DNA from: Candidatus Zixiibacteriota bacterium
Lineage (GTDB): Bacteria; Zixibacteria; MSB-5A5; CAIYYT01
DNA: 47,596 bases
NCBI GenBank assembly: GCA_040235515.1
Contig: JBECKX010000208.1
Location: forward strand, 1 to 47,596
Direction of reading: 5' to 3'
Below the pieces are notes generated by a model, which was not told the DNA's origin, searched no databases, and saw only the letters and a program-made list of their open reading frames with translations. This document shows, piece after piece, positions 19,420 through 40,073 of this stretch (its first letter is position 1; every line of letters starts with the position of its first letter). Both the position numbers and the translations under genes were made by a program.

Positions 19420-20139
19420 ATGAAAAGAATATTGGTTGTCGAGGATGAAGAGCATATCGCCGAGGGGTTGACGATCAACCTGGAGGCCGAAGGATATGAA
19501 GTGGCGGTGGCCGGGGATGGCAACACCGCGCTCAAGATGTATGGCGACGGTCAGTTCGATCTGATCATACTCGATATCATGATTCCCGGTAAAGATGGTC
19601 TGGAGGTATGCCGCGACATTCGCAAGGGTGGAGGCAGAATCCCCATCCTCTTTCTCACCGCCCGCGACCGCCAGTCGGATCGGGTAGAGGGCTTTCTCTC
19701 GGGTGGCGATGACTACCTGACTAAACCGTTTGATTTACAGGAACTCCTCCTCCGCGTGGCCGCAATCTTTCGGCGGCAGGTCTGGTACAGCACCGTCGAA
19801 AAGGACGAGTCGCGCTATATCTTCGATGACAATTGGGTCGACTTCCGCACCTACCAGGCGGTCGGGCCGCATGGCGAGACAGAATTGTCGCAGAAGGAAT
19901 GCATGACGATGAAATATCTCTCGGAGCACGAAAACGAAGTCGTCACCCGCGACATGATCCTCGACGCCGTCTGGGGGTATCACGTCTACCCATCAACACG
20001 AACGATCGACAACTTCATCTTGAGATTGCGCAAAATCTTCGAGCCTGACCCTGCCAATCCCCGCTACATCCTGACAATGCGCGGCGCAGGCTACAAATTC
20101 GTGCCGGAAGGCGTAAGCAAGCCGGACGAAGCGGAGTAA
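19420..20139 (+). CDS. OmpR/PhoB-family response regulator
   Basis: VVEDE, LDIMIP, FLTAR and GGDDYLTKPF motifs; winged helix (RTIDNFILRLRK, TMRGAGY). Confidence 0.95.
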   Translation: MKRILVVEDEEHIAEGLTINLEAEGYEVAVAGDGNTALKMYGDGQFDLIILDIMIPGKDGLEVCRDIRKGGGRIPILFLTARDRQSDRVEGFLSGGDDYLTKPFDLQELLLRVAAIFRRQVWYSTVEKDESRYIFDDNWVDFRTYQAVGPHGETELSQKECMTMKYLSEHENEVVTRDMILDAVWGYHVYPSTRTIDNFILRLRKIFEPDPANPRYILTMRGAGYKFVPEGVSKPDEAE

Positions 20140-20395
20140 AGTCCCCCCCAATTTCACTCCTGCTTTCAATCAAAGCAGCCCCGGCAGACTCCTGAAACCT
20201 CCATGCAGTCCACTCACTGCCGGAATAATCCTTGCTAACGTAAACGTGCGATAATCGGGACGAATTACCCCTTGATTCAATGCGCGCGATACAGCGGGCG
20301 CTGTTCAGATTTCTTGCGCTTGTGCTTTTCATTCCGGCACAGTTAGAATTCCTCCAACCTTCAGAATCAGAGGTTTAGCTGTCGATACAACTAAC

Positions 20396-21298
20396 ATGAC
20401 AGCTAACAGCAGGAAGGACAACGGCGGCGCTGCGCCTCACAACGATTTTCTCCGAAGAGAACAGAATTCTGCCGCTAAGATCTCGCGGCGGCGTTCCGTG
20501 CTTGCCCTCGTTACAGTGTTGGCGGCAATTGGTTTGCTCTACTTTGGCGCAGGCCTACCCCTCACTGAGGCCTCGCTCGAGAGCGAAAATGCGCACGGGC
20601 AGATCGATTGCAGCAGATGTCACAAAATGCAGGCGAGCATCCCTCGCGCAGACGGCTCCGGTGAATTGAACTCCGCGCTGCCCAGCAGCAATGATTGCAT
20701 GCAATGCCATACTGTGGAGCAGATGGGCAGTAACAGCTTTCATAACTCAGGCTACGGCGATTGCTTATCGTGCCATAGCTTTCATCACTCAGAAGAACTC
20801 ACCATCGCCGGCAGACCAGCTTCATTGAGTACAGCCAAAGCATCCGTGGAACTCTGCGCCGACTGCCACGGCGAATCGACGACTCCCGAAGTGAGTCCGG
20901 GTCATCGGCTTGCCGCGCAACTAATTCATGGCGAACAGGAGGGACGCTTCGCAGAACAACCCTCCGAGTTCTGTCTGCTCTGCCATGACCGCGATGCCTC
21001 ACTTCCGATCGCTGCGCCCGAACTGAGTGAGTTCCCTCGATTTCATGTTCAGGCAAGCCACACCTACGGTACCATCCTGGTACCTGGCTCAGGCCGCCCT
21101 GGCTCGCAATTGAAGATTCAACGGGAATTCCCACCCGAGATGCCCCTATTCGAAGGTAAGATCGAATGTCAAACCTGTCATTCGCTGGTGTCGGGTGAGA
21201 AGTACCTGCTTACAAAGAGGATTGAGCAAGGACTCTGCAACGATTGTCACGACATGGGTGATCGCACCGCCACCAACCTGCTCACCACCAGTCGTTAG
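20396..21298 (+). CDS. Multiheme c-type cytochrome, 7 CxxCH
   Basis: CSRCH, CMQCH, CLSCH, CADCH, CLLCH, CQTCH, CNDCH; N-terminal hydrophobic anchor or signal. Confidence 0.9.
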   Translation: MTANSRKDNGGAAPHNDFLRREQNSAAKISRRRSVLALVTVLAAIGLLYFGAGLPLTEASLESENAHGQIDCSRCHKMQASIPRADGSGELNSALPSSNDCMQCHTVEQMGSNSFHNSGYGDCLSCHSFHHSEELTIAGRPASLSTAKASVELCADCHGESTTPEVSPGHRLAAQLIHGEQEGRFAEQPSEFCLLCHDRDASLPIAAPELSEFPRFHVQASHTYGTILVPGSGRPGSQLKIQREFPPEMPLFEGKIECQTCHSLVSGEKYLLTKRIEQGLCNDCHDMGDRTATNLLTTSR

Positions 21299-21533
21299 TC
21301 GCCGCCACCTTGCCGGCACCCTTTTCGCCTGTAACCGAGTCAAATATCGTCGATTTAGCCGCTTTTCTACCGATCCCTGTAACCTCAATCCCCACAACGC
21401 CCAATAAATGCGCATCGAAACGCGGGCTTGAGCCATTTCACCCAAGTAATTGTGGGCGAAGAACTTTATCGGGATATTTTAGTCCTTTTTAAAGCAATCT
21501 TCAAAAAAAGATACTAAAAGGTAGTTTTTCTGC

Positions 21534-21561
21534 TTGCTTTCTTGAGTGATTTGTCTATCAT
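21534..21561 (+). promoter_or_regulatory. Possible sigma70 promoter TTGCTT-N16-TATCAT for the nanowire operon
   Basis: Lies in the AT-rich intergenic region upstream of the two palindromes; partial consensus match only. Confidence 0.3.
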
Positions 21562-21646
21562 ATCGACCGAACATTTGGATACTCGATTTCAAGGTTAGTT
21601 CGATGGTCAAAAAGTACCCGCCTCACAAGTTAAGCCATTTCACCAT

Positions 21647-21664
21647 ATGTGAAAAAAATCACAA
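21647..21664. promoter_or_regulatory. CRP/Rex-like palindrome aTGTGA-aaaaaa-TCACAa
   Basis: Exact TGTGA-N6-TCACA at 21648..21663; two mismatches to the Rex consensus. Confidence 0.55.
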
Positions 21665-21742
21665 CAAGGTAAGTGGTGTTATTTCCAGTTTCCCCTTATT
21701 TTTCCTCAATCTTGGTGTGTCGGGTTTTTTTTCGAACTATTC

Positions 21743-21760
21743 TTGTGAAGTATTTCACGA
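21743..21760. promoter_or_regulatory. Rex-like operator TTGTGAA-gtat-TTCACGA
   Basis: One mismatch to TTGTGAA-N4-TTCACAA; 27 nt upstream of the first operon gene. Confidence 0.6.
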
Positions 21761-21787
21761 AGTAGGGAGTTAGAGCAGGTTAATCTG

Positions 21788-23038
21788 ATGCACGTTTCTT
21801 GTCAGACAGCTATGGATCATGACGTCATCAAGCAAGTCAATCCGTCGCGAATACACACCACACAGCTTCGCTTCTTCGGCGGCAAAATCTTCCGCCTCAT
21901 TTCGCTCGTTGCAGTGATCTGTACCCTCCTGGGGGCTGGCGCATTTGCGCAGGATCGTTATGAGCTGGCTGTCGAGTCAGACTTTCTCCGGCAGCTTGAC
22001 CCGCCCGGTATCGGCAACGGTCTCCTGCGTCCAGAGAGCATCTGTGTTGATCGTCGTGCCGGTGAAGTATTCGTTAGTGATCCCGGCAACAACCGGATAG
22101 TCGTGTTTGACACAGCCGGTGTGTATCTCTTTGAGTTTGGCGGGAAGGACGTGTTCCGCAACGTCGGTGAAGTCGTTATCGACTCCAGGGGCTTCATCTA
22201 TGTGCTCGGCTCGGCGCCGGAAGGCAGATTCATTTACAAATTTGACTATGATGGCCTGCTGCTGGGCAAACTCGAGGTGCGCGGCTTGCCCGAGGGGCTC
22301 GACTTCGCGCCGCTGAGCCTCAATATTTCTGAAGAAGACTTAATCTATGTTGTCAATGGACCCGATCCGCAGATGATCGTGATTGACACGAATGGGGAAT
22401 TCAAATCTGGTTTTGCTGTGCTGGGAGACCTGACCGAAAAGTTAAGGAGGGAATCCGTAATCGGCCAGCCTGAGATTGATGCTGATCGCATTTACCTGCC
22501 GGTACCGTCGCTCGGTTCGGTGTTCGTCTATCATCTGGACGGCAGCCTGGAACGAGAGATTGGCATCCGCGGCAACCTTGTGGGTCAGTTGAATTTTCCG
22601 TCCGATGTTACGATCATCGATCACAGGATCGTTGCAGTCATCGACAAACATCGTTTTGTAGTAGTTACTTTTACAACCAACGGGCAGTTCCTGGGCGAGT
22701 TTGGCGGGATGGGTGTGAGTCCGGGCAAGTTCTACCATCCGGCTTACATCGATCACGATGACCAGCAGCGGCTATACATCTCGCAGCGTTTCATGAATCG
22801 CGTGCAGGTCTGTAATCTGCCACAACTCATCACGGAACGGCTGGATTCGTTTGAGACTCACCCGAACGACATCACGACAGGCGAATCCGCGGGCGAATCA
22901 TCGCAAGAATCATTGCAAAGTTCCCTTCAACCTAGACTGCCAGAAAACCATTTGGAGGAGGTGGTGCTTAAAACCAGTTCAACCCCAGTTTCAGTACGCT
23001 CTTTTTTATTCGTGAGTAAATCTCGGAGGTTAATTTAA
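21788..23038 (+). CDS. Exported NHL-repeat beta-propeller protein
   Basis: LLRPESICVD, VFVSDPGNNRIVVFD, GQLNFPSDV and GKFYHPAYI repeats; signal peptide ending AFA-Q. Confidence 0.9.
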   Translation: MHVSCQTAMDHDVIKQVNPSRIHTTQLRFFGGKIFRLISLVAVICTLLGAGAFAQDRYELAVESDFLRQLDPPGIGNGLLRPESICVDRRAGEVFVSDPGNNRIVVFDTAGVYLFEFGGKDVFRNVGEVVIDSRGFIYVLGSAPEGRFIYKFDYDGLLLGKLEVRGLPEGLDFAPLSLNISEEDLIYVVNGPDPQMIVIDTNGEFKSGFAVLGDLTEKLRRESVIGQPEIDADRIYLPVPSLGSVFVYHLDGSLEREIGIRGNLVGQLNFPSDVTIIDHRIVAVIDKHRFVVVTFTTNGQFLGEFGGMGVSPGKFYHPAYIDHDDQQRLYISQRFMNRVQVCNLPQLITERLDSFETHPNDITTGESAGESSQESLQSSLQPRLPENHLEEVVLKTSSTPVSVRSFLFVSKSRRLI

Positions 23039-23040
23039 TC

Positions 23041-24096
23041 ATGCGTAAGCTTTTCATTATTGCTATCGCTCTCTCGCTGCCGATCTTCTTCAGCGGCGTA
23101 GCGATGGGCTTCCACGATGCCGGTGTGGCACATTGTAACGGCTGTCATACCATGCATAACAGTGAAGATGGTGCGCTCGTAGATGCCACCAATCCGAATG
23201 GTAATGCCTACCTGCTTCGGTATGCCTCGGCTTCCGACGTCTGCCTCTCCTGCCACGCTACCGGTCTCGGCGCCGTTTGGGGAACCGACCCGCTTGCTCC
23301 CCCGACCGAACGCGGTGGTGGTAACTTCGTGTTCCTCATGGAAGACAACCTGAATGACGCACATGCCGGCGCCAGCAACCCGATTCCGGGTGAGGCCGCT
23401 GGACACAGCGTCAACGCTCCCAGCATGGGTTCCGGCACTGACGGAACGCTCTCGATGGCACCGGGCGGAACATTCCCGGCCGCCAACCTTGAATGCTCAA
23501 GCTGCCATGACCCGCATGGTAACGCCAACTTCCGTCTCCTGTACGGAGTGGGCGGCATTCAGGCCGGCACTTTCACCTTCACCAACGCCGCCCCCGATGC
23601 CGAGGGTTTGAGCCTGTTTGGTGCCGGTGAGAGCCAGACCAACCATACCGCCTACAAGGGCGGCATGAGCGCCTGGTGCGGCAACTGCCATGGCGACTTC
23701 CATAACAACAACACCAAACTGATCCACCCGTCAGGTAAGGTCCTGGGCGGCACAATCGCTACCGCTTACAACCTTTACAACGGTACCGTCGATCAGACTG
23801 GTGGCGCTCAGGCTACAGCCTACCTTGCTGAAGTTCCGTTCGAGGATCCGGCCAACACGACCTCGTCGACCGCAGGTCCGTCGGCCAGCAGCCAGGTCTC
23901 CTGTATCACCTGCCACCGCGCGCATGCGACCTCAGCTCCTGACGCTACTCGTTGGGACATGAGCGTCACATTCCTGCATGAGGATGGTGTGGAATCCGGC
24001 GCCTATCAGATTCCGGATCCGTACAACAACCTCAACCAGCGCTCGCTGTGTAACAAGTGCCATGTGAAGGACGCCGGCGACGAGATGCCGTTCTAA
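23041..24096 (+). CDS. omcS: Hexaheme OmcS-family cytochrome (nanowire subunit homolog)
   Basis: Six CxxCH. The mature N-terminus FHDAGVAHCNGCHTMHNS and the blocks APGGTFP..L.CSSCHDPHG, GMSAWCGNCH, CITCHRAHA and QRSLCNKCH.KD match Geobacter OmcS as I recall it. Strong GGAGG RBS. Confidence 0.88.
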   Translation: MRKLFIIAIALSLPIFFSGVAMGFHDAGVAHCNGCHTMHNSEDGALVDATNPNGNAYLLRYASASDVCLSCHATGLGAVWGTDPLAPPTERGGGNFVFLMEDNLNDAHAGASNPIPGEAAGHSVNAPSMGSGTDGTLSMAPGGTFPAANLECSSCHDPHGNANFRLLYGVGGIQAGTFTFTNAAPDAEGLSLFGAGESQTNHTAYKGGMSAWCGNCHGDFHNNNTKLIHPSGKVLGGTIATAYNLYNGTVDQTGGAQATAYLAEVPFEDPANTTSSTAGPSASSQVSCITCHRAHATSAPDATRWDMSVTFLHEDGVESGAYQIPDPYNNLNQRSLCNKCHVKDAGDEMPF

Positions 24097-24159
24097 GCGC
24101 TTGAATTAGCGTTCTCGAAATTCATAGCCCTTCTGACCTTGAAATCGTTTTAGGGCACA

Positions 24160-24196
24160 AACAGGTACCCGGCCCGCACGGGTCGGGTACCCTGTT
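24160..24196 (+). terminator. Strong stem-loop 3' of omcS (stabiliser or partial terminator)
   Basis: GGTACCCGGCCC-gcac-GGGTCGGGTACC, a 12-bp stem extendable by AACAG/CTGTT; no long U tract. Confidence 0.65.
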
Positions 24197-24215
24197 AAGT
24201 GGAGATGTTAGAGAA

Positions 24216-26315
24216 GTGAGACGAACCAAACGACAGAAGGTTCTCACAGGGCTGATTACCACACTTGCAGCCGCAGTCGCGGCTCTCCTCTTCCTGACAG
24301 ATTCAGCCGACGCCAGAGTATCACAGAACCTCGGCGGTAGGTTCAGACTCAGTTTCCTCCAATCTGAGACTGATATCCAGAAAAGAGAAAACCTCGACCA
24401 GGAGTACGTTCTCGGCTGGCAGAACCAGTTCACCCGGAATCTCCTCGGGCGTGCCATGGTGCGCTACTTCAATGTGGGCGTTACTCAGAGCGACGGTGCT
24501 AACAACTGGCGTTCTGACTTGCAGCCTTCAGTTGAGGCGTACTGGCGTCAACGGGAGTTTTCGCTGATCGGGCTCGCACACTACCGCGAAACCCGCAGTA
24601 ATGACAGATCAACGGAGCTGGTATCGGAACTGGCTGGAGCAACGTTCAAGTCGCAGCTGCCCGGATACCCTTTCGTCAGAGCCAGATTCGAGATTGAGAA
24701 GCGCTACAATCGGGTGGACCGCAGCGATCGCGACACTCGTGATCAGGCATACGAGTTCGAGACAGGTTACACATCTCTCTCCTTCTCATCAAGGTACTCA
24801 ATGCGGCGCCACGTTACCGACGACTGGTCACGTGATTTGAGGAGTAGTATCACCCACCACTCGCTGCAACTGCAACAAATCGTCAAGTGGGCGGGAAACG
24901 GTATCCACACGTCGGTGGGATATCGCGGGGAATACAAAGTGCGTACCGATGAGAATTTCTCGACCAGCGCGCTGCCGCGACGGCTTCCGATCTTTGCTGC
25001 GCTCGCAGCCCGCGACCAATCACCGGAAACCGGCGGTCTTGATACGGTTGCGGCGCTGGCGGATGGAAACCTCGACAACCCCACCAATCCCCCCATCAAT
25101 ATCGGTGATGGCAATACCTACTGGAATATCGGCGCCGACCTCGGCCTCGGTCGGGAAGTCAACCTTCTCTACCTCTACACCGACGCGCCGTCTGAGAATG
25201 GTGTACGCTGGGAAGTATTCACGTCTGATGATGCAATCTTCTGGCAAAGCCAGGGGGCGACCCAGTCGTTTTTCAGCCCCGGCTTCAGCCGTTACGAGAT
25301 ATCGTTTGATGCCCAAACCACCCGGTATATTAAAGTCGTGAATACCGGTTTCAACCTGAGCGACTCGGTGAACGTCACGGAGTTGCAGGCTCTGATCCTG
25401 CTCGATTCGAGCAGCAAACTCTCCCTCGACAATTTCGTGCATGAAGCTGATATCAACAACTCCATCACCCTTTCGGAACAGGTGACCTCAAACGTCAGCG
25501 CGGTACTGAGAACCGAGCCGGGCAATGAGCTTGACCCGGGACGCGAGGAAGCTTATTTCAATTCCATGCTCAGGCATCAGCCGTCGAAGAAATTTCACCA
25601 CCTGGTGAGGGGGGAGCTTGCTCTCCTCGATATCGAGAACGTCGCGAGTGAAGTCACCCGCTCGGTTTCCGGGGGGTACACCGCGGAGTACCTTCCGCTC
25701 AAGACACTGGACCTGATCGCCTCCGTCTATGCGCGGCTCAACTATGTCAAGTCGCTGCGTTCGGAGGAGGTTTACAACGGCGTCCTGCGCGCCAGCGCCG
25801 ACCCCTTCCCGCGACTTCAAATCGTCCAGGAGGGTGGCATCAGCAGGGCAAACCTGAATATCTCCGCTCGACAGATTGACGGCTGGAGCTATCGGGTTGA
25901 TATGATCGGCAGCCTCACCGAGTGGTTGGAAGGAAGAGGCGGCGTCGGCTATCGTGAAGTCCACTCCAGCGATGGTACAACCATCCGCAAAGAATATCGG
26001 CTCGGGTTCACCTATTCGATCACCGACAACATGCAGCTCCGGGGCAACATCAACAGCATCGAAGAGGATCGAGTGCAGAGCCTTTCTCAAGACTTCGTTT
26101 TTAGCTGGCGGTTGACACCCAAGGTCACGACGAGTGCTAATGCTTACCTGCTTCGGTTTGATGAAGGTGACAGCACGGAGCGCTATGGTGCGCAGGTGGA
26201 ATACAACCTGTCGCGACGCACCATTCTTACCGCGAGTGTCCAGGAAAACGATTTGACCGGTACCGGCGGCGAATCGACTTTGTCATACAGATTTGGAATA
26301 AGGACGGGATTCTGA
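24216..26315 (+). CDS. Outer-membrane beta-barrel with an inserted discoidin (F5/8 type C)-like domain
   Basis: Signal peptide, alternating beta-strand pattern, C-terminal Phe (RFGIRTGF); central ADLG...WEVFTSDD..FW...TRYIKVV...ELQ pattern. Confidence 0.75.
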   Translation: MRRTKRQKVLTGLITTLAAAVAALLFLTDSADARVSQNLGGRFRLSFLQSETDIQKRENLDQEYVLGWQNQFTRNLLGRAMVRYFNVGVTQSDGANNWRSDLQPSVEAYWRQREFSLIGLAHYRETRSNDRSTELVSELAGATFKSQLPGYPFVRARFEIEKRYNRVDRSDRDTRDQAYEFETGYTSLSFSSRYSMRRHVTDDWSRDLRSSITHHSLQLQQIVKWAGNGIHTSVGYRGEYKVRTDENFSTSALPRRLPIFAALAARDQSPETGGLDTVAALADGNLDNPTNPPINIGDGNTYWNIGADLGLGREVNLLYLYTDAPSENGVRWEVFTSDDAIFWQSQGATQSFFSPGFSRYEISFDAQTTRYIKVVNTGFNLSDSVNVTELQALILLDSSSKLSLDNFVHEADINNSITLSEQVTSNVSAVLRTEPGNELDPGREEAYFNSMLRHQPSKKFHHLVRGELALLDIENVASEVTRSVSGGYTAEYLPLKTLDLIASVYARLNYVKSLRSEEVYNGVLRASADPFPRLQIVQEGGISRANLNISARQIDGWSYRVDMIGSLTEWLEGRGGVGYREVHSSDGTTIRKEYRLGFTYSITDNMQLRGNINSIEEDRVQSLSQDFVFSWRLTPKVTTSANAYLLRFDEGDSTERYGAQVEYNLSRRTILTASVQENDLTGTGGESTLSYRFGIRTGF

Positions 26316-26935
26316 TGAAATATGGTCCGAGGAACTCAACCAGCGCTGCACCGAATCGGCCACTCTCAAGCGCCGCAGTGATACCAGTGCTGCTGGCAGT
26401 GATTTTGATGGCAGCAGGCTGCTCGACAGTCCGCCCCACCGTGTTTATACATGAAGAATACAACTTCGCGTTCGTCGAACGCGTGGCAATCGTGCCATTC
26501 GAAAACCTCTCAGACGACCAGGGCGCCGGCGCACGTCTCACACACCTCTTTATGACCGAACTCCTTGCCGCCAAAGTATTCGATGTCGTCGAACCGGGAG
26601 AGGTCGTCCAGGCACTGGGCAAGTACCCGCTGCCACGCAAAGACCTGATCACGATGGAACAGGCGAAAGAAATCGGAAAGACCCTGAGGGTGCAGGCGCT
26701 GATTATTGGAAGCGTCAACGAATCCAAGAACAACCGGGCCGGCGGTGGACCGGCAACCGTAGTCACACTGCAGGTGCGCATGGTTGAGATTGAGAGTGGC
26801 CAGACCGTCTGGTCCGCTACCCATACGGAAGGCAGCCGCACGTTTCTCTCTTCGCTCTTCGGTACGGAAGAGCGGTCCTACAGCGAGGTGGCTCGCCGGT
26901 GCGTACGCAGAACCATTGACACCCTGATTGATTGA
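26315..26935 (+). CDS. CsgG/GNA1162-like lipoprotein
   Basis: Lipobox MAAG-C; RVAIVPFENLS, IGKTLRVQALIIGSV and VRMVEIESGQTVWS motifs; TGATG coupling to the barrel gene. Confidence 0.8.
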   Translation: MKYGPRNSTSAAPNRPLSSAAVIPVLLAVILMAAGCSTVRPTVFIHEEYNFAFVERVAIVPFENLSDDQGAGARLTHLFMTELLAAKVFDVVEPGEVVQALGKYPLPRKDLITMEQAKEIGKTLRVQALIIGSVNESKNNRAGGGPATVVTLQVRMVEIESGQTVWSATHTEGSRTFLSSLFGTEERSYSEVARRCVRRTIDTLID

Positions 26936-26950
26936 AACCACGGAATCCAG

Positions 26951-28090
26951 ATGACTCGCGCACTTGACATCAGACGCAGCTGTTACGCCACAATAGTAAT
27001 GATACCCGCTCTATTTATTCTTGTATTGGCGGGGCAAACCCTTGCGCAAAACAACTGGCGGGTAGCACGGTTTGCGCTTGTGCCGCTTGCCAATCATTCG
27101 GAGTTCAACGTTGCGCGCGAACAGGTGGAATCGCTGCTGCTGGAGAATCTCTCCGGACGCTGCTCGCTGGTGCCGTCAGATTCGTTGCGCTCGTTTATGC
27201 GCGCCGAGCGACTGCGCCTGGTGGGTAACGTCGACGCGGTCGCTGCGACGAAGTTGCGCGGCGGTGTCGATGTCGATTATGTGATCACCGGGTCGGTGGA
27301 GGCCTACGAACCCGGCGCCCTTCCGGAGTTTTCACTCTGCCTGCGGGTTTACAATTGCTGGGACAGCGAGATCGTCTGGATGCAATGCGCGTTTGCTACG
27401 GGTGAGGATCTGGCCGGTGCATTCGGGATCGGTGAAACTTCATCACTCGACAAAGTGATGGAATTCGTAATTGAAAATCTGATGGCAGACTTCGACCTCC
27501 ATCGCGACGGTCTGCTGTTCAAAAAACCGAAAGAGTCGGGCAAAGCGAGCAAACTGCTCAACGGCGGCACGGTTGCGCTCATCCCGTTCGATCACTCCAC
27601 TCTCTATCACTCTGCCGGTGACGTGGTCAGCGATTTCGCACTGGCGAAAATCTGGCAGGAGGGTTTCAGAGTGGCGGAACCGGGCGATGTAGCGCGCGTA
27701 CTGATTCGCGCTCGACAACTCTACTTCGGCGCTGCGACCGACCGGGGCATGAAAGTGCTCATGGACAGCCTCGGTGTTGCGGCGGTCGTGAGTGGAACGG
27801 TCTTCAGCTTCACGCCGCTGAAAGGACAGCTCACACAGGCAGGCCCCCTCGTTGGCCTCAGCCTGCGGTTGGTGGATCCGGCGAGCGGTGATGTATTGTC
27901 GGCTACGGATGGGGAACGTAACGGGGCTCACTCGATGTCAGTCTTCGGTGCAGGCAGGGAATACTCGATGGGCGAGAGCGCCACTGCACTGGCAGGAGAC
28001 CTCTGGGGCAGGCTCGTCTCCAGTCGCCGAGAACCGGGCGGCAAGCGCGGAAAAAACAGCACTAATAACGATGAAACAGCTCAGAGGTAA
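26951..28090 (+). CDS. Exported protein with two tandem CsgG/TolB-N-like domains
   Basis: RFALVPLANHS...VDYVITGSV and TVALIPFDHS...GVAAVVSGTV...LRLVDPASGDVL; signal peptide ending TLA-Q. Confidence 0.72.
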   Translation: MTRALDIRRSCYATIVMIPALFILVLAGQTLAQNNWRVARFALVPLANHSEFNVAREQVESLLLENLSGRCSLVPSDSLRSFMRAERLRLVGNVDAVAATKLRGGVDVDYVITGSVEAYEPGALPEFSLCLRVYNCWDSEIVWMQCAFATGEDLAGAFGIGETSSLDKVMEFVIENLMADFDLHRDGLLFKKPKESGKASKLLNGGTVALIPFDHSTLYHSAGDVVSDFALAKIWQEGFRVAEPGDVARVLIRARQLYFGAATDRGMKVLMDSLGVAAVVSGTVFSFTPLKGQLTQAGPLVGLSLRLVDPASGDVLSATDGERNGAHSMSVFGAGREYSMGESATALAGDLWGRLVSSRREPGGKRGKNSTNNDETAQR

Positions 28091-28094
28091 TCGC

Positions 28095-29729
28095 ATGAAT
28101 TTGATCAGGCACGCTCTCATACTATTGGCGGGACTACTAGTTTTCACGGTTGCGGCCGCATCCGCACAGGATGCGTTAGTGGTTGTAAACGGTGATTCGA
28201 TCACCACCAATGATCTGGATCGTCTCTTTGCCGGTATCCACAGCGGCATGAGCCACGACAAGAAAATGAACTTCGATTATCGCAAGCTGGTGGATCGACT
28301 GGTGAATGACCGTCTGATGCTCCAGGAAGCGGAGGCAATCGGTCTGGCGGATGATGAAGCCTTCGTTGACTTCATGGCCGACGAGAAGGAAAAGAATATC
28401 GTTCGCCGCTTCATCAAGCAGAACTACCGCTTCGACCGGGAAGTATCCGACGACGCTGTTGCGGATTACTTCGACAAGAACTACCACAAGATTCAGGTTC
28501 GCACAATCTCCACGCCGACTCGCGCACTGGCTGATACCCTTCGGGAACTGATAGAGTCGGGTGCGGCGATGGACAGCCTGGCGAAGCTGCATTCGATCGA
28601 CGTACACCGCTATCAGGGCGGTGCTCATAGCCTGAAGTACTACGCTGAGATTGAGAATGATGTGCGCGCCTACCTCGATGATCCGAAAGTCGGACAGTTG
28701 ACAGGGCCGGTACCCTACCGGGAGGCGTATATCCTTATCCGGGTTGAGGAGATCAAACCCGCCGACAGAGAAGAATTGCCGGCCTTGAGCGGATACATCA
28801 ACGGCGTTCTCACCACCGAACTGCGCAAGACCGACTGGCAGGAATTCGTGGACTCTCTCATCGGCACCCTCGATTTGACCAGGAATCAAGCCCTGATCGA
28901 CGTGATGGCCAATTCGAATACGACGGTACTCGATTCCAGCTTTATGTCGGGCAGCGAGACTGTCGTGGCCTCACTCGCCGGACGGGAAAACCTAACCGAC
29001 GCTGATCTGAGATACCGCACGGCGAAGATCGCGATGAACGCCGCCACCGCCCCGCCAGATTCCCTGGTCAATGCCGCTTTCCAGGAGTGGCTCAGGGATA
29101 AAGCACTGGTGCTCGCAGGCGAGGCCGCCGGATTGGCTGACGATCCCATGATCGCGAAGACACTTGAGAACACACGCGACAGCGCACTGGTGGAGATCTA
29201 CCTGAAAGAAACGATCGTGTCGCAGATCGTCTTCAATCGAGAAGAATTCACGGCCTACTACAACGATCATCAGGAGGAATTCCGTGAACCGGGCAAATTT
29301 TACCTGCGCAGGATGATCGTCAGCGACGCACTCAAGGCGGACAGCGCCTACCAGATGCTGCAGGATGGTGGGGATTTTGACTACGTGATGGACCGCTTCA
29401 TCACCGAAGATCGCAGGCTGGTAGAAAAATCGGAATGGGTCTCGATGAATGCATTTCCGGAGGAAATCCGCAAGGAATTGGAGTCGCTCCCGGTTGGCGC
29501 GGCCAGCAAGCCCTATCAGACCCCGGATGGCAGCATAATCTTCAAGGTGCTCGAGAAGAAGGAAGGGCGTCTCAAAGAGCAGGACGAAGTCGAGATGCAA
29601 ATCAGAGAGGTGATGTTCCAGCGCCAGTTCAACAAGTTGCTGGACGAGACATTGGCGCTCCTCAAGGAACATTCAGAGATAACCTATAACGACGAGGCAA
29701 TTGACCGCTACCTCGGCGGCAGTAAATAG
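28095..29729 (+). CDS. SurA/PpiC-like peptidyl-prolyl isomerase chaperone with two units
   Basis: Signal peptide; VVVNGDSIT SurA-N motif; two rotamase-like segments. ATG 28095 follows GAGG; the ORF-track start at 27852 overlaps the upstream gene. Confidence 0.85.
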   Translation: MNLIRHALILLAGLLVFTVAAASAQDALVVVNGDSITTNDLDRLFAGIHSGMSHDKKMNFDYRKLVDRLVNDRLMLQEAEAIGLADDEAFVDFMADEKEKNIVRRFIKQNYRFDREVSDDAVADYFDKNYHKIQVRTISTPTRALADTLRELIESGAAMDSLAKLHSIDVHRYQGGAHSLKYYAEIENDVRAYLDDPKVGQLTGPVPYREAYILIRVEEIKPADREELPALSGYINGVLTTELRKTDWQEFVDSLIGTLDLTRNQALIDVMANSNTTVLDSSFMSGSETVVASLAGRENLTDADLRYRTAKIAMNAATAPPDSLVNAAFQEWLRDKALVLAGEAAGLADDPMIAKTLENTRDSALVEIYLKETIVSQIVFNREEFTAYYNDHQEEFREPGKFYLRRMIVSDALKADSAYQMLQDGGDFDYVMDRFITEDRRLVEKSEWVSMNAFPEEIRKELESLPVGAASKPYQTPDGSIIFKVLEKKEGRLKEQDEVEMQIREVMFQRQFNKLLDETLALLKEHSEITYNDEAIDRYLGGSK

Positions 29730-29766
29730 ATGAGAATTTATGTGAGCAGTGGGAAAGGAATGACAT

Positions 29767-31758
29767 ATGTGGTCTGATGAGCGCAGACACAATGGTATTT
29801 CAAAGCTGGGCTTGCCACTCGGTGTGCTGGCGCTGACTGCGATGATATTGGTGTCACTCGGTGACAGTTTGAATGGCCAGATCAAACGCGGGAAGCGCTT
29901 CTCCTCGAAAGGCAACTGCACGGAATGCCATGATGTCAAGGACTTCGAGGGCAATCAGAAGCACAAACCGTTCGCGGACAAGGATTGCGAATCATGCCAC
30001 AAACCGCACGGTTTGGTGGGGATGTTGCGCCTCAAGGAAAGTGGTGCGCAGCTCTGCTACCAGTGCCACGACAAAGCGGAACTGGGAATGGAAGCCAGCG
30101 TGATACATTCACCGGCCAGGGAGGGGCGCTGTGAAAGCTGCCACAACCCTCACGCCACCAACAATGCAGCCCTTCTGACCAAGGACGCAACCACGCTTTG
30201 TTTTGACTGCCATGACCGCGCAGAGTTCGAGGCACAATTCGTGCACAGCCCGATGAAAGACAATTGCTTTTCTTGCCACGAAGTTCATGGCAGCGAGCAC
30301 GCCGGGCTACTCAAGAAGTCAGCTACGGAACTCTGCATGGATTGTCACAAACCCTCTGATTACAAGAGCGCGCATGGCAATTATGCCCTGGCCGATCAGG
30401 ATTGCGGAAACTGCCATTCCCCGCACTCGGCCGGCACCTCTGCACTGCTGACCAGATCGATCCACGCGCCGGTTGAGTCCGGTGATTGTGAGAGCTGTCA
30501 TAACGCGCCGGACGATTCCGAACCGTTCGGGCTGGTAGAGGATGCCGACGAGGTCTGCCTGGTGTGCCATGATCAATCGGAGGTGGCGCCTGCGGGAAGC
30601 CATGCACCGGTCGAGGCGGGCAACTGCACGGCCTGCCATAACCCGCACGGTTCCAGGCAGAATGCCCTGCTGCTTCAGAACGAAAAACAACTTTGCCTCG
30701 AATGTCATACTGACGTGCAGGCGGAACTGGTAACGGCCTCGCGCCACGCCCCTGCCCAGGATGATTGCGGCACCTGCCACAGCGGCCATGGCATGGCAAA
30801 GCAGAGCCTGCTGGTGGCCGAACCGAATGAGCTGTGCCTCTCCTGCCATGACGATATGGCTGAAGCGATGAGCTATGCGAGCACGCACTCGCCCTTTACC
30901 GACGGAGAGTGCGTCGATTGTCACCGGCCGCACGGATCGGCGTTTGCCAGCCTGAACAAGAAACCGCAGGCTGATCTCTGCGACGACTGCCATGACCAGG
31001 GCATGGACTGGCTCGCCGAGAAGAGCGTCCACCTGCCGATCAAGCTGGGGCAGTGTGCGGAATGTCACAACCCGCACGCGTCACAGCATGCAACTCTATT
31101 GCGTGCGGAGAGCAACAAGATCTGTGAGAATTGTCATTCGGAGTTGTACGCCGATAGCCTGGCGATCATCCAGCACGCACCGTTCGAAGAGAGAAACTGC
31201 GAGATGTGTCACGTTCCGCATGCGGGTAAGGTACCGGGCCTGCTCACTTCCGAGAGCAAGGAACTGTGCGGCACCTGTCATGATGACGTGCTCGAACCCT
31301 CTGCGATGGCCAGCATGCATGCACCGGTTGCGGATGGTGAATGCGCAAAATGCCACACGCCGCACTCAGGTAAACTGGCACACCTGCTGCTGGACAAGGA
31401 ACCGCGACTCTGTTTGAACTGTCACGACGACATCAATGTGATGATGAAGAAGTTCACTTCGCACCCGCCCGCAGAAGAGGAATGCAGCGGCTGTCACCAG
31501 TCACATTCGAGTCAATTCGCCTCACTGTTGGTGCAGGATATACCGGATGGCTGCCTGGAATGTCACGACGGCAACGACTCCGGCTTCAAGAGCAAGCACC
31601 TCGGCCTGGCTGGATCCCAGATCGACTGCCGCAAGTGTCATGATCCGCATGCCTCCGAGGATCGCGATCTGATGCTGGGCAACGACCACAGCCCATTCGC
31701 CGAAAGGATGTGCGACGCCTGCCACTCTGAACCGTCGCGGGAAGGAGGTGATCAGTGA
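29767..31758 (+). CDS. Multiheme c-type cytochrome, 26 CxxCH (paired-CxxCH repeat type)
   Basis: 26 motifs counted from CTECH to CDACH, in H-x-P...CxxCHxPH...LCxxCH repeats; N-terminal signal. Confidence 0.95.
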   Translation: MWSDERRHNGISKLGLPLGVLALTAMILVSLGDSLNGQIKRGKRFSSKGNCTECHDVKDFEGNQKHKPFADKDCESCHKPHGLVGMLRLKESGAQLCYQCHDKAELGMEASVIHSPAREGRCESCHNPHATNNAALLTKDATTLCFDCHDRAEFEAQFVHSPMKDNCFSCHEVHGSEHAGLLKKSATELCMDCHKPSDYKSAHGNYALADQDCGNCHSPHSAGTSALLTRSIHAPVESGDCESCHNAPDDSEPFGLVEDADEVCLVCHDQSEVAPAGSHAPVEAGNCTACHNPHGSRQNALLLQNEKQLCLECHTDVQAELVTASRHAPAQDDCGTCHSGHGMAKQSLLVAEPNELCLSCHDDMAEAMSYASTHSPFTDGECVDCHRPHGSAFASLNKKPQADLCDDCHDQGMDWLAEKSVHLPIKLGQCAECHNPHASQHATLLRAESNKICENCHSELYADSLAIIQHAPFEERNCEMCHVPHAGKVPGLLTSESKELCGTCHDDVLEPSAMASMHAPVADGECAKCHTPHSGKLAHLLLDKEPRLCLNCHDDINVMMKKFTSHPPAEEECSGCHQSHSSQFASLLVQDIPDGCLECHDGNDSGFKSKHLGLAGSQIDCRKCHDPHASEDRDLMLGNDHSPFAERMCDACHSEPSREGGDQ

Positions 31759-32996
31759 TGCAGAAGTTACTCATCAATCTGGTCTTGTTCGGCTCAATCG
31801 CCCTTTCATTGCTGATCTCTAACCGGGCATCAGCGCAATCCGTCGTGGTTGATCAACCCGCGGTATGCTACACCTGCCATGACGACATCGAAGAGCAGCA
31901 GGACCTCAAGAACGTGCACGGCGCATTCGCGTCGGGTGAGTGTTCCAGTTGTCACAACCCGCACGCTTCTCGCCATGCTGCGCTGTTGAACGAAGATGTG
32001 GCACAGACCTGTTTCGAATGCCACGATGAAATCGCGACCGAGATCGCGATGAGCAACCCGCATCAGCCGGCACTCAACGGCGAATGTCTCTCGTGCCACG
32101 ATCCGCACGCCTCGAACTTCAGAGGTGTGCTGAAGGAGTCGGCCGGAAAACTCTGCCTCTCCTGTCATGAGAACGCGGAACAGTGGCTGGCGCGAGCGAA
32201 CGTGCATGCTCCGGTGGCTTCCCGGGATTGCGCCACGTGCCACGCGGCACACGGCTCTGCCAATCAGGACCTGCTCACCGAAGCGATGCCACAAGTTTGC
32301 TTTGATTGTCACGATAACGACGCAGCTTTCAAGCGCGTGCACAAGGGGTACGACCTGGCCTCGGCCGATTGCGCCGCCTGCCACGACCCGCACTCCTCCT
32401 CCTCGAAGGGGCTGCTGATGGCCAACCAACATGCTCCGTTCGCTGCGGGTGAGTGCAGCAGTTGTCACTCGGGTGGTGCTTCCGCAGGTAGTTCATTTGC
32501 CATGAGCGGAGCGATCGATAAGGTGTGCTTCGAGTGTCATGACGACATCAAAGCGAACAAGCGACTGCGCTACTCCTACCACCTCGAGGCAGAAGGCTCT
32601 TGCACGAACTGTCACAATCCACACGCCTCAAATGCTTCGACTCTGCTGAGTTCCGATCAAAGCAACCTTTGCATGAAGTGCCACTTTACTGAGGTGCCGT
32701 CGAAGGATAGACCGAAATTCATCACGCATGAGGGGCAGGACTGTTCAATCTGTCATGCGCCCCACGGTGCTGACAACGAGCGCTACCTCACCAATGACAA
32801 TGTGATGGAGCTGTGCAATGGCTGTCACGCGGATGCACACAAGAACTCGCATCCGATGGGTGATGAAGCTATCGATCCGCGCACGGAGCTCCCGATGGAT
32901 TGTCTGAGTTGTCACACGATGCACGGATCGGGACAGGACTTCTATCTCGCCTTCGACCCTGACATGGACCTCTGCATCCAGTGTCATAAACGTTAG
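31755..32996 (+). CDS. Multiheme c-type cytochrome, 16 CxxCH
   Basis: 16 motifs counted from CYTCH to CIQCH; signal peptide ending ASA-Q; AAGGAGGT RBS; overlaps the previous stop. Confidence 0.95.
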   Translation: MMQKLLINLVLFGSIALSLLISNRASAQSVVVDQPAVCYTCHDDIEEQQDLKNVHGAFASGECSSCHNPHASRHAALLNEDVAQTCFECHDEIATEIAMSNPHQPALNGECLSCHDPHASNFRGVLKESAGKLCLSCHENAEQWLARANVHAPVASRDCATCHAAHGSANQDLLTEAMPQVCFDCHDNDAAFKRVHKGYDLASADCAACHDPHSSSSKGLLMANQHAPFAAGECSSCHSGGASAGSSFAMSGAIDKVCFECHDDIKANKRLRYSYHLEAEGSCTNCHNPHASNASTLLSSDQSNLCMKCHFTEVPSKDRPKFITHEGQDCSICHAPHGADNERYLTNDNVMELCNGCHADAHKNSHPMGDEAIDPRTELPMDCLSCHTMHGSGQDFYLAFDPDMDLCIQCHKR

Positions 32997-33020
32997 CAGC
33001 GCAGAGATTTCTGCAGAACA

Positions 33021-33062
33021 AGAAAAGAGCCGCTGCAGCGAGTGCAGCGGCTCTCTCTATTA
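33021..33062. terminator. Bidirectional intrinsic terminator
   Basis: AGAGCCGCTGCA-gcgag-TGCAGCGGCTCT (33026..33054) between convergent operons, with an A-rich left flank and pyrimidine-rich right flank. Confidence 0.8.
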
Positions 33063-33087
33063 TCAATAGTCTCTTTGAGAGTTGCTA

Positions 33088-33513
33088 CTAAGACTGGGGA
33101 AGGAACGAGTTGATCATCTCTTCTACCTCAACCCCGATCGTCTTCATCGAATGCTTGCTGAATGTGCTGTTGAAGGTGTAACCTGACTTCCCGACGATCA
33201 GGAAGTAGGAGCGGTGGAAGAGCGCCCTCTCATCCGTTGGATTAGTCTTGTAGACCCACTCGTACACCGGCAAACCGCTCGCGAGCGATTTTCTACCCTC
33301 CTTCAGTGTTACCGCATCCGGCATCGCATCCTTCATCATCTGGACACGCTGTTCGGCGAACGAGTCCAGTGTGTGATCCCCGATATTATCCTCGATCGCC
33401 AGGTTGAGCATATGCTGCACGCCATGGGCCTCCGGACCCATGAATGTGTGAATCGATCGGTCCTCCCACCCATCAGGGAGACTCAGCTTAAAACTGTGAT
33501 TCGTCTTTGCCAT
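33088..33513 (-). CDS. DcrB/DUF1795-like (T6SS effector adaptor-like) protein
   Basis: LPDGWEDRSIHTF signature; 141 aa; last gene of the PAAR operon. Confidence 0.75.
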   Translation of the reverse strand: MAKTNHSFKLSLPDGWEDRSIHTFMGPEAHGVQHMLNLAIEDNIGDHTLDSFAEQRVQMMKDAMPDAVTLKEGRKSLASGLPVYEWVYKTNPTDERALFHRSYFLIVGKSGYTFNSTFSKHSMKTIGVEVEEMINSFLPQS

Positions 33514-33570
33514 ATTTCACTTCCCATCTTGCCGGGGATAATTGCTCCACCTCATTCATCATTTCGTCTT

Positions 33571-34440
33571 CTATCTCCCGAGCGCCTGGCCCAGCAGCGA
33601 GCGGAGCTTTTCAACCCGGCCCTGGTTCTCATACGGTCTCTCAAAACTGAAGTCTATCAGCGTTACTCCATTTACCGTAACGGATAGGGCGTCGCTTCCA
33701 CCGGCGGTCTCAGCCGTCTCAGCGGCGGAAGTCGGCGCGTATTCAGCACCCAGCAGCCTGAGCTGCAGAAGGCTCTTCCACAGCGGCGCAAAATGCGCCA
33801 CATCAAGTTGTCTTGCCTGATCGTTCAGCGTCACGGTGCAGCTTCCGCCGGAGAAATTCCATCTCCAGCTCTCGTTGTCAGCTGCGCCATTCGTCGACAG
33901 CAGCAGGCTGAAGTCATTCGGCAGGACCGGATTGGCGCGCCGTTGTTCGGCAATCTCCGCGATAGCCCGATCGATCGCCTCCAGCGGCCCGCGTAGGTGC
34001 TCGACAAGTTTGTGATAACTCTTGATCCAGTCGACGATTGTGTCGCCACCGATTCTCACGAAGAGCCGCTCGCGATACTGCATCCCCGGCGGAGTCGGCT
34101 CGAAGTCGGAGTCGGTCAGATTCTGATATTGACTCCAGTCGATAGCGCCGATCAACTTCTCGAGCTGATTGCAATCACCCTGCGAGATCAGCAGGAGGTA
34201 GGGCGCCTCGTCGAAGTCCGCCGGCGGCGGTACCTGCGAGTCGGTCCACAGATCACGTTGTCCGATCGAGCAATATGCCGCCTGCTTGACGACGTTGTAC
34301 TCCAACCCAAAACTGTATTCGAAATGTTCCACGTCTCGCCTAACCTCTTGAGTTTCACCTTCCTGCTTGCAGGAACAATTCACCGCCAGCACCGACACCA
34401 GAATCAGAATTCCGGCGAGTCGCCGCTCAAACAAATGCAT
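33571..34440 (-). CDS. Hypothetical lipoprotein (candidate immunity protein)
   Basis: Start at ATG 34440 after AAGGA; lipobox LAVN-C; downstream of a putative effector. Confidence 0.6.
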   Translation of the reverse strand: MHLFERRLAGILILVSVLAVNCSCKQEGETQEVRRDVEHFEYSFGLEYNVVKQAAYCSIGQRDLWTDSQVPPPADFDEAPYLLLISQGDCNQLEKLIGAIDWSQYQNLTDSDFEPTPPGMQYRERLFVRIGGDTIVDWIKSYHKLVEHLRGPLEAIDRAIAEIAEQRRANPVLPNDFSLLLSTNGAADNESWRWNFSGGSCTVTLNDQARQLDVAHFAPLWKSLLQLRLLGAEYAPTSAAETAETAGGSDALSVTVNGVTLIDFSFERPYENQGRVEKLRSLLGQALGR

Positions 34441-38969: not shown

Positions 38970-40073
38970 TTAGCCGCTGAAACTTTCATCCTTGATATCC
39001 ACCGAGACCTGTACCCTACCGGCGGGGACATCCGTTTCCTTAGCATGTCCATTGCCATCGAGCCTTCCCTCCCGAATCTCGCCGGTACAGGTGTAGAGTC
39101 GATACTTCTTATCTGCGAGCGGGTTGCCATCCTTATCCTTCAGATTGATCTCGATATCATCGAGTATGATCAACAATCCTGAGCGTGACTCGCAATCACC
39201 GACTCGTACCTTGAAGAAGAAGTACGGGGCCGAATATTTTCCGCTGTTCGCTTTTTCATCCTGAATCTGCAGATAACTCTGATCTACTTCGACTATCCAA
39301 TTATGCTCAACTTTTCCACCACTGACGTTGACCGGAATCGACTTGATCACGCGCGTTGCGTAGTTGGGATCAAAGACACAGAGTTCAAGCGCCGCAACCG
39401 TTCCATCCTCGATACCGACCGCCTCGGCACTCATCTTCACAGAGTCACCGACCTTCGCTCGCTCGGTCGACCACTCGGCGTTGATAATCCCCATCAGTTC
39501 GATATCGTAATTGCCGGTCTCCGTGACGATCTGTTTGACCAAGCCGGTCATCGGCCCCGAACTTTCGAAGCCGCCCGGACCTTTCATCTTGTAGTTCATC
39601 CCGGTAATCGGATACCCCCCCTTGTCGACGAAAGCGACTTCGAGGAAGTGCTCCTCGCCACTACCGTCGCCACCCCCGCCGCTGCCGACTTCAGCGGCAG
39701 CATCTCCTCCGCCACCCGACGACTCCTGGGCCGCGACTCCGCCGCCGCTGCCACCGGCGCCACCGGCGCCGCCACCGGCACCCGCCTCACCTATCAGCAC
39801 GGTCGGACAACCGGCGACTATCGAATCGGGCGGACCAACACAGGTAGCCATATCACCCATCCTCGCGGCCGGCATACCACCGATCATTACCCCTGATGAA
39901 CCAAGCGTGATTGGACCACCGCCGTGGGGCTTGGGACCGTCACACATCGGGCATACATGCATGTCGCCCAATCGTGCGGCCGGCATCCCACCGATCATTA
40001 CAGTGGGGCACCCGACAGTTATTACTCCGCCGTGTGCGGTCGAATCGCCTAATCTTGCTGCTGGCTTACCCAT
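38970..40073 (-). CDS. PAAR-domain protein with Gly-rich linker and C-terminal extension
   Basis: Three PAAR motifs (PAARLGD twice, PAARMGD); His/Cys zinc ligands; transthyretin-like tails (VDKGGYPITG..Y; KDKDGNPLAD..Y...G.LDGNG). Confidence 0.92.
   Translation of the reverse strand: MGKPAARLGDSTAHGGVITVGCPTVMIGGMPAARLGDMHVCPMCDGPKPHGGGPITLGSSGVMIGGMPAARMGDMATCVGPPDSIVAGCPTVLIGEAGAGGGAGGAGGSGGGVAAQESSGGGGDAAAEVGSGGGGDGSGEEHFLEVAFVDKGGYPITGMNYKMKGPGGFESSGPMTGLVKQIVTETGNYDIELMGIINAEWSTERAKVGDSVKMSAEAVGIEDGTVAALELCVFDPNYATRVIKSIPVNVSGGKVEHNWIVEVDQSYLQIQDEKANSGKYSAPYFFFKVRVGDCESRSGLLIILDDIEINLKDKDGNPLADKKYRLYTCTGEIREGRLDGNGHAKETDVPAGRVQVSVDIKDESFSG

Follow-up and report, generated by a model that had tools for sequence, protein, structure and literature searches.

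Can a bacterium outside the Geobacteraceae build and export cytochrome filaments of the OmcS type, and with how small a set of dedicated genes? The question is raised by contig JBECKX010000208.1, assembled from a Candidatus Zixiibacteriota bacterium, whose 47,596 nucleotides (nt) were analysed as one stretch (hereafter the window). Between positions 21788 and 32996, eight co-directional plus-strand open reading frames (ORFs), here called g1 to g8, place a hexahaem cytochrome related to OmcS (g2) among genes resembling the osc genes of Geobacter. We consider it probable that this Zixibacteria osc-type cluster serves the folding and export of g2 and the wiring of its polymer for extracellular electron transfer. 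The cluster is a further example of the known osc system, which it extends without being new in kind.

The g2 protein is a relative of OmcS

Searched with phmmer against the Protein Data Bank (PDB), g2 matched the OmcS structures 6EF8 and 6NEF at E 4e-40 and no other PDB sequence at E up to 1. Its residues 24-162, 164-327 and 333-344 align with OmcS residues 1-150, 186-367 and 396-407; the alignment pairs the two mature N-termini (g2 F24 with OmcS F1) and extends to the CNKCH-KD end. The six CxxCH motifs of g2 start at residues 32, 68, 152, 213, 288 and 337 and, together with six further histidines (H25, H39, H122, H159, H229 and H295), are invariant in an alignment of 36 diverse homologs. Among the 112 homologs encoded in the loci fetched for comparison (described below), the six motifs as well as H122, H159, H229 and H295 were kept in all 112, H25 in 111 and H39 in 105. 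Judged by this conservation, the six additional histidines are candidate distal ligands of bis-histidine haems.

The position of H39 deserves particular attention, as it aligns with His16 of OmcS, within the TMH motif, and we take His16 to be the ligand of a haem in the neighbouring subunit. Passages of PMC12307469 describe such an inter-subunit bond between histidine and haem in general terms, the residue not being numbered there. Based on these findings, we conclude that g2 is a homolog of OmcS.

The family to which g2 belongs is large: 4591 proteins reached E <= 1e-5 among the 8000 candidates scored, and 887 clusters formed at 50% identity matched g2 at E <= 1e-3. An OmcS-like protein of Geomonas silvestris is 30% identical to g2 (E 2e-46), and no OmcS-specific NCBIfam model was matched by g2.

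The cluster has the gene order of osc loci

The genes of the cluster, with the stem-loop that follows the subunit gene, are as follows.

21788-23038, plus strand: g1, 416 amino acids, exported NHL-repeat beta-propeller (Pfam NHL, E 9e-6)
23041-24096, plus strand: g2, 351 amino acids (about 328 in the mature form), OmcS-family hexahaem cytochrome, predicted filament subunit
24161-24195, plus strand: stem-loop directly 3' of g2, -28.5 kcal/mol
24216-26315, plus strand: g3, 699 amino acids, predicted large outer-membrane beta-barrel, predicted translocon and anchor
26315-26935, plus strand: g4, 206 amino acids, PelC-like lipoprotein with lipobox LMAAG-C
26951-28090, plus strand: g5, 379 amino acids, secreted protein with two PelC-like domains
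28095 (likely start)-29729, plus strand: g6, SurA-like periplasmic chaperone with two peptidyl-prolyl isomerase (PPIase; parvulin) domains
29767-31758, plus strand: g7, 663 amino acids, 26-haem cytochrome with an N-terminal hydrophobic anchor, OscI-like
31755-32996, plus strand: g8, 413 amino acids, 16-haem cytochrome with a signal peptide, OscJ-like

The intergenic gaps from g1 to g8 measure 2, 119, -1, 15, 4, 37 and -4 nt when g6 is taken to begin at the ATG at 28095, its likely start. A reading from 27852 would give g6 its longest ORF, but one that overlaps g5 by 239 nt and lacks a signal peptide. Judged by eye, each of the eight proteins has an N-terminal sequence for export or anchoring, namely a lipobox in g4 and a signal peptide or hydrophobic anchor in the others. 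Their CxxCH motifs add up to 48 (six in g2, 26 in g7 and 16 in g8), the other five proteins having none. The G+C content of the window is even (0.51-0.58), and Rfam gave no match at E up to 0.1 for positions 20000-34000. A sequence-only reading of this DNA had described eight co-directional genes in this interval with 48 CxxCH motifs in all, among them an NHL propeller, hexahaem, 26-haem and 16-haem cytochromes and a PPIase chaperone; our ORF coordinates, motif counts and Pfam matches (NHL at g1; two PPIC rotamase domains plus SurA_N at g6) agree with that description.

To place the cluster among its relatives we scanned for OmcS relatives in one genome per species. At least 301 of 628 pattern matches encode such a relative, and the best 80 of them gave 79 loci. 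The hidden Markov models (HMMs) of the accessory families were trained on blastp hits from these same 79 loci, and the counts that follow lean on this training set. Together, blastp and the HMMs delineate a general order: an NHL protein, one to several OmcS genes, optionally a propeller of about 470 amino acids, then the barrel, the g4-like and g5-like proteins, the PPIase, and the 26-haem and 16-haem cytochromes. This order was seen in Geomonas silvestris (L069), G. limicola (L072) and Geobacter sp. (L073), and also in loci titled Nitrospirota, Desulfobacterota, Acidobacteriota, Krumholzibacteria and others. The resemblance in parts and order to the Geobacter omcS/osc locus, which had been proposed earlier, is thus borne out, with the three named Geobacteraceae loci standing in for G. 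sulfurreducens PCA.

The Geomonas silvestris locus illustrates the correspondence gene by gene: it encodes an NHL protein, two OmcS-like proteins, a 467-residue propeller, a 762-residue barrel, a 199-residue g4-like protein, a 388-residue g5-like protein, a 600-residue PPIase, a 26-haem cytochrome and a multihaem gene cut at the end of the locus. Homologs of g3, g4 and g5 follow one another in the same order in L069, L072, L073, L060, L051 and L049. In the matching position, 26-CxxCH homologs of g7 were found in Geomonas (L069), Geobacter sp. (L073) and a Nitrospirae locus (L051), and 16-haem homologs of g8 in L073 and L049. Homologs of g1 lie directly upstream of OmcS homologs in 45 of the 79 loci, including those of both Geomonas species. 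Counted per locus, at least five of the six accessory families were present in 29 loci and two to four in 20, many of these being cut by contig ends; the remaining 30, with none or one, are orphan OmcS genes or short contigs.

Some of this evidence comes from outside the training set. The barrel and PPIase genes of L069 and L072 had not been used for training and were still found (E 2e-59 and 1e-134). Moreover, the genome-wide best matches of g5 and g6 in two Geomonas genomes fall inside osc-like loci, and g6 is the reciprocal best match of the PPIase in the Geomonas silvestris locus, ahead of the host's own paralog on contig C50. These matches uphold the kinship between the accessory genes and the osc genes on which the original comparison had depended.

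The cluster contains no counterpart of the OscD-like propeller, only 119 nt separating g2 from g3. The propeller HMM, which finds 35 ORFs in the loci, gave only a weak partial match in the host genome (contig C31, E 3e-12); in 21 genomes of the host family it matched no more than parts of repeat regions, with E values no better than 1e-16. In 34 of the 79 loci, and in 17 of the 29 fullest, a propeller does separate the barrel from the OmcS genes. The other 12 fullest loci also lack it within the fetched stretch, so that the OscD-less form is not unique to the host family. Since the loss of OscD reportedly changes the morphology of the wires and does not abolish them, we did not treat OscD as defining for osc clusters. 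The osc machinery is called "widespread and ancient" in the title of Shen et al. (2025, Cell Chem Biol 32:239).

Excerpts of PMC13194489 likewise link OscD to wire morphology, and the 473 aligned residues quoted there for OscD fit the propeller of about 470 amino acids. According to the same excerpts, OscH folds, OscE, OscF and OscG secrete, and OscD shapes the OmcS wires, and oscI (GSU2495) and oscJ (GSU2494) are listed as periplasmic cytochromes (PMC13194489). From order and size we infer that g3, g4, g5, g6, g7 and g8 correspond to OscE, OscF, OscG, OscH, OscI and OscJ, respectively. The reduced form that had been noticed in the sequence is also real, in that the cluster has no OscD-like propeller and a single OmcS gene.

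The g4/g5 pair is PelC-like rather than CsgG-like

Both g4 and g5 had been called CsgG-like from their sequences, a label less apt than PelC-like by profile and structure comparison. The Pfam CsgG model scored g4 at 20.2 bits, under its cut-off of 20.8. A profile built from 36 homologs of g4 and compared with the PDB matched PelC (5T11, E 5e-9; 9H80, E 6e-8) and, far more weakly, LpoB (0.014), and found no CsgG at E up to 1. The lipobox cysteine of g4 (Cys36) is invariant, while g5 carries an ordinary signal peptide instead.

No Pfam family was matched by g5. The HMM of g4, however, resolves it into two tandem g4-like domains, at residues 38-178 and 207-358. Its AlphaFold2 model has a predicted local distance difference test (pLDDT) score of 85.7, and the top Foldseek matches of the model are PelC (TMt 0.64-0.76). 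Aligned with VIA-align, the model fits PelC with Z 13.7-14.5 and a root-mean-square deviation (rmsd) of 2.4-3.1 Å over 125-137 aligned residues, whereas the fit to CsgG has Z 9.4-12.2 and an rmsd of 4.7-5.5 Å at 11-13% identity. We conclude that a PelC-like fold is present once in g4 and twice in g5, and that the CsgG, TolB N-terminal and LpoB domains share this fold more distantly. Because PelC was matched better than CsgG by the profile of g4 as well as by the model of g5, "PelC-like" is the better label for the pair. CsgG builds its own barrel; the g2 cluster instead has a separate barrel gene. Among the papers listed as mentioning both PelC and OmcS, none concerns this link by its title.

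A large barrel, a chaperone and two multihaem cytochromes

The third gene had been read as a beta-barrel, and its AlphaFold2 model agrees with this. Pfam offered for g3 only a weak match to Porin_4 (16.7 bits against a cut-off of 27). The model (mean pLDDT 90.2) is a large beta-barrel in which 11 + 17 long strands (about 28) surround an inserted beta-sandwich at residues 253-396 (window 24972-25403). The nearly invariant residues of the g3 family lie mostly in this insert (W332, S337, D339, W343, F364 and K373). An Atlas search with the insert gave a top score of 0.83, to F5/8 type C, which we record as a lead only. Foldseek retrieved generic large barrels and no close structural relative of g3; the best TM-score was to MtrB of the Mtr complex (6r2q_B, TMq 0.37), with TonB-dependent receptors and the PapC usher about equal. 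A profile built from g3 homologs matches, at E 2e-59, the 762-residue Geomonas gene in the same position. Large barrels occur in most OmcS regions, and a porin-like mounting pathway has been proposed, as stated in passages of PMC13712944.

The Pfam matches of g6 are Rotamase_2 (E 3e-24), Rotamase and SurA_N. Those of g7 and g8 comprise 13 and 8 doubled-CXXCH stretches, respectively, the CxxCH motifs of g7 being spaced 22-28 residues apart, and both proteins match the DmsE/MtrA-type decahaem model TIGR03508 (E 1e-83 and 4e-54). We also considered them as NrfH-like quinol dehydrogenases. The matches to the NrfH model lie at the N-termini, 29767-30220 in g7 and 31755-31970 in g8 (E ~1e-15), and at 56.6 and 52.6 bits they stay well under the cut-off of 134; we treated them as haem-motif similarity.

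These similarities raise another explanation, namely that the cluster encodes a porin-cytochrome conduit in which g3 would sheathe part of g7 or g8 as MtrB does MtrA, and g2 would act as a monomeric or short-oligomeric terminal reductase at the cell surface. The MtrB match of g3 and the decahaem matches of g7 and g8 speak for such an arrangement, as does the contested role of OmcS filaments in vivo (PMC13194489 and, by their titles, letters in mBio). However, a TM-score of 0.37 is low and all large barrels score alike. The histidine aligned with His16 of OmcS, kept in g2 and in 105 of the 112 homologs, also argues against a conduit, and so do the PelC-type rings, which are known from polymer export (PDB titles 9H80 and 5T10). 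Furthermore, Mtr/Pcc systems are not known to include a PPIase chaperone of their own. We therefore regard a conduit of this kind as unlikely and retain polymer export as the preferred explanation.

A hairpin follows the subunit gene

Among 13 relatives' loci, two pairs of which are identical, the spacer between the g2 and g3 homologs contains a strong hairpin in 10, mostly with a T-run. The spacer of L002 keeps the stem with changed stem letters; three of the 13 spacers are short, and two of these lack a hairpin. More broadly, a 44-nt hairpin of <= -20 kcal/mol was found 3' of 79 of 109 OmcS-family genes (distinct stretches), against 8-20 of 31-51 for the other cluster genes, and a hairpin with a T-run 3' of 20 of the 109 against 0-1 after the others. 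As the relatives are not independent, these counts describe a pattern and are not a statistic. We think it likely that the stem-loop after g2 is a leaky or partial terminator, or a stabiliser of the 3' end, and that it would give an excess of the subunit.

Neighbouring genes and the end of the cluster

The features that adjoin the cluster are listed here.

18098-19402, plus strand: histidine kinase (Pfam HisKA/HATPase_c)
19420-20139, plus strand: OmpR-type response regulator (Pfam Response_reg/Trans_reg_C)
20396-21298, plus strand: 7-haem c-type cytochrome (seven CxxCH; Pfam Cytochrome_C7 and Paired_CXXCH_1)
33026-33054: terminator-like hairpin, -25.5 kcal/mol, where g8 and a DcrB-like gene converge

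The conserved 7-haem cytochrome and the kinase/regulator pair upstream of g1 were absent from the parts list of the sequence-only reading. The cytochrome has an N-terminal hydrophobic anchor or signal, and its homologs lie beside the cluster in 6 of the 79 loci (L012, L014, L021, L024, L025 and L039). The full order from kinase and regulator through the cytochrome to g1...g8 recurs in L021 and L024 (regulator 83% identical), and in L014 with a 5 kb insertion. It is possible that the 7-haem cytochrome feeds electrons to the cluster's products and that the histidine kinase and response regulator control the cluster.

At the other end, the cluster had been said to stop at a single terminator. A strong hairpin is indeed present at 33026-33054, with a GC-rich stem of 12-15 bp; its T-tract on the plus strand is weak, however, and we thus call it terminator-like and do not consider it a proven terminator.

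Further away, the flanking Npt-HEAT pair noticed earlier could be recovered by Pfam as a gene resembling TLC-type ATP/ADP transporters and, after it, one for a HEAT-repeat protein (7007-9755, minus strand). On the minus strand, positions 35576-38950 encode a protein of 1124 amino acids without a Pfam family, which adjoins a PAAR-motif protein (38970-40073); both are unrelated to the cytochrome cluster.

A working model and the points against it

How might the cluster function? In our model, g2 without its haems would be exported by Sec and loaded with haem by the cytochrome c maturation system of the genome, while the SurA-like g6 would keep it competent for assembly. At the inner face of the outer membrane, g4 and g5 would form a PelC-style ring under the g3 barrel. 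The g2 subunits would pass through ring and barrel and join in a head-to-tail polymer, in which the His39 of one subunit would be a ligand to a haem of its neighbour. Electrons would be carried across the periplasm to the base of the filament by g7, g8 and perhaps the upstream 7-haem protein. The stem-loop after g2 would yield more mRNA for the subunit than for the machinery, and the upstream two-component pair would control expression of the cluster. We assumed, by analogy with Geobacter, that electrons flow outward, to Fe(III)/Mn(IV) minerals or partner cells.

Several observations weigh against this model. The g2 protein is about 79 residues shorter than mature OmcS (328 vs 407) and only ~30-40% identical to it, and on these grounds its filament interface may differ from that of OmcS. 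In a pairwise search of the host genome, the Geomonas barrel found no match; the link between g3 and the Geobacteraceae barrels consists of a profile match and a shared position only. Even for Geobacter, passages of PMC12307469 call the functions of the Osc proteins "proposed" and the mechanism of secretion "still speculative", and the physiological need for OmcS wires is disputed in passages of PMC13194489.

The direction of the current might also be the reverse, with electrons running into the cell and Fe(II), a cathode-like mineral or a partner organism as their source. Chains of haems are reversible conductors, and such a use would be compatible with the export and polymerisation of g2 that we favour. 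Geobacter, the sole experimental model, uses OmcS for electron export, however, and no oxidative partner such as Cyc2 is indicated in the window. We consider inward flow improbable, more so than the conduit discussed above, and keep to an outward-conducting filament.

A second, orphan OmcS paralog in the genome

The host genome encodes another OmcS paralog on a different contig (C137:10418-11548), 56% identical to g2 and with no osc genes nearby. The cluster had been described as a single-omcS system; this holds for the cluster itself, which has one OmcS gene, but not for the genome, which has this second one. At the position of H39 in g2 the orphan has a lysine. Going by this substitution, the orphan paralog might not polymerise as OmcS-type subunits normally do, or might end a filament. 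Other genomes of the phylum supplied 12 second paralogs for comparison; nine of them have histidine and two serine at this position, and one duplicates another entry.

The host and the spread of the family

The host genome measures 3.59 Mb and is rated 100% complete with 0.16% contamination. It has 17 ORFs with at least three CxxCH motifs as well as a cytochrome c assembly gene, and strongly scoring homologs of g3, g4 and g5 occur in it only inside the window. Its RpoB is 63-80% identical to the 120 relatives listed, and the 17 of these with organism names comprise 15 Zixibacteria/Zixiibacteriota, one "bacterium" and one Deferrimicrobium. Based on RpoB, we place the host in the Zixibacteria and not in the Geobacteraceae, which substantiates the earlier suggestion of a non-Geobacter, possibly Zixibacteria-like host. 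Window DNA is contained in three DNA runs of one sediment study, and no RNA run was listed as containing it.

OmcS homologs were found in 16 of 20 other genomes of the host family and in 1 of 20 genomes of other families in a first sample; an even sample of the phylum yielded them in 37 of 201 genomes and 21 of 108 genera. The cluster is retained in the host family, g1, g2 and g3 being adjacent in L002-L008. With the osc cluster already published as widespread, and with OmcS homologs in 37 of the 201 sampled genomes of the phylum, the novelty that had been claimed for the host and for its reduced form was overstated.

A midpoint-rooted FastTree phylogeny built from 124 homologs puts g2 together with its family members, in a clade of proteins of about 350 amino acids, apart from the 375-462-residue proteins of loci titled Desulfobacterota or Nitrospirota. 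This placement, as far as such a tree can be trusted, argues against recent transfer from Geobacter-like bacteria. The g2 homologs of L009-L048 are 50-73% identical, and their loci bear the titles Ignavibacteria, Krumholzibacteria, Fibrobacteria, Gemmatimonadota, Acidobacteriota and Calditrichaeota. Names given by submitters are an unreliable guide to the spread of the g2 clade. That the contig is foreign, either mis-binned or recently transferred from a Desulfobacterota or Nitrospirota donor, is highly improbable: the many phyla named in the titles of loci with 63-73% identical g2 homologs and the patchy occurrence in the phylum could be cited for it, but the completeness and low contamination of the genome, the even G+C content of the window, the gene's presence in 16 of 20 family genomes, the conserved g1-g2-g3 of L002-L008 and the FastTree placement all stand against it.

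OmcS homologs are known from diverse bacteria (PMC10954620), and Zixibacteria have been credited with iron-reduction genes in passages of PMC8478452 and PMC7005843. Those same passages contain no tie of OmcS or osc to Zixibacteria.

What the cluster would mean

Should the predictions hold, OmcS-type filaments could enable members of an uncultured phylum living in sediments to respire minerals or to connect electrically to partner cells, and a wider set of organisms would have to be considered in iron and carbon cycling. The compact set, lacking OscD and with one subunit gene, is smaller than the Geobacter cluster and might be of use for the heterologous production of nanowires. Moreover, the likeness to PelC and the hairpin after the subunit gene provide handles on the passage of a folded haem polymer across the outer membrane. 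Three details of the cluster lend themselves to testing: the pair resembling PelC, the 28-strand barrel and its insert, and the hairpin.

A more far-reaching proposal can be formulated, which we advance tentatively and think more likely wrong than right. One family of Zixibacteria might hold a natural minimal nanowire kit, consisting of a single subunit gene and seven helpers and lacking an OscD-like shaper. Its PelC-like domains, contributed by g4 and the doubled g5, would form a ring (four copies of each protein would yield the twelve domains seen in PelC). Placed beneath a 28-strand barrel, this ring would export a polymer that is already folded and loaded with haem. The export of cytochrome filaments would then have branched off in evolution from polymer export of the Pel type, and the stem-loop after the subunit gene, which occurs across phyla, would determine how much subunit is made relative to the machinery.

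Comparison with known systems

The closest known system is the osc cluster of G. sulfurreducens (omcS GSU2504, omcT GSU2503, oscC GSU2501, oscI GSU2495 and oscJ GSU2494), compared here through the loci of Geomonas silvestris, G. limicola and Geobacter sp. Both have a subunit gene of the OmcS family with an NHL propeller upstream, followed in the same order by a barrel, a small lipoprotein, a doubled lipoprotein-like protein, a PPIase, and the 26-haem and 16-haem cytochromes. The Zixibacteria cluster differs in lacking the OscD-like propeller of about 470 amino acids, in having one subunit gene where the others have several paralogs, in a subunit shorter by ~80-90 amino acids, in its host phylum, and in the 7-haem cytochrome and two-component pair that are conserved upstream in the host family.

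Compared with OmcS itself (PDB 6EF8 and 6NEF), g2 has the same six CxxCH motifs, an aligned mature N-terminus (F-H), the TMH motif, the CNKCH-KD end, and the histidine aligned with His16 plus five further invariant ones. Unlike OmcS, with its 407 mature residues, g2 has 328, and OmcS residues 151-185 and ~368-395 have no counterpart in it.

As for the presumed export apparatus, the likeness is to the PelBC exporter (PelC dodecamer, 5T10/5T11; PelBC, 9H80). The PelC fold recurs, with weak sequence likeness, in g4 and in both halves of g5; g4 is a lipoprotein as PelC is, and the genes of the pair adjoin that of an outer-membrane barrel. On the other hand, g3 has about 28 strands with a beta-sandwich insert and no tetratricopeptide repeat (TPR) region detected in it, the cargo would be a folded haem protein in place of a polysaccharide, and the ring of g4 and g5 is a prediction. 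The CsgG channel is a more distant comparison: it shares a related periplasmic alpha/beta domain fold with the pair, but its Pfam model scores g4 under the cut-off and its structure fits less well than that of PelC.

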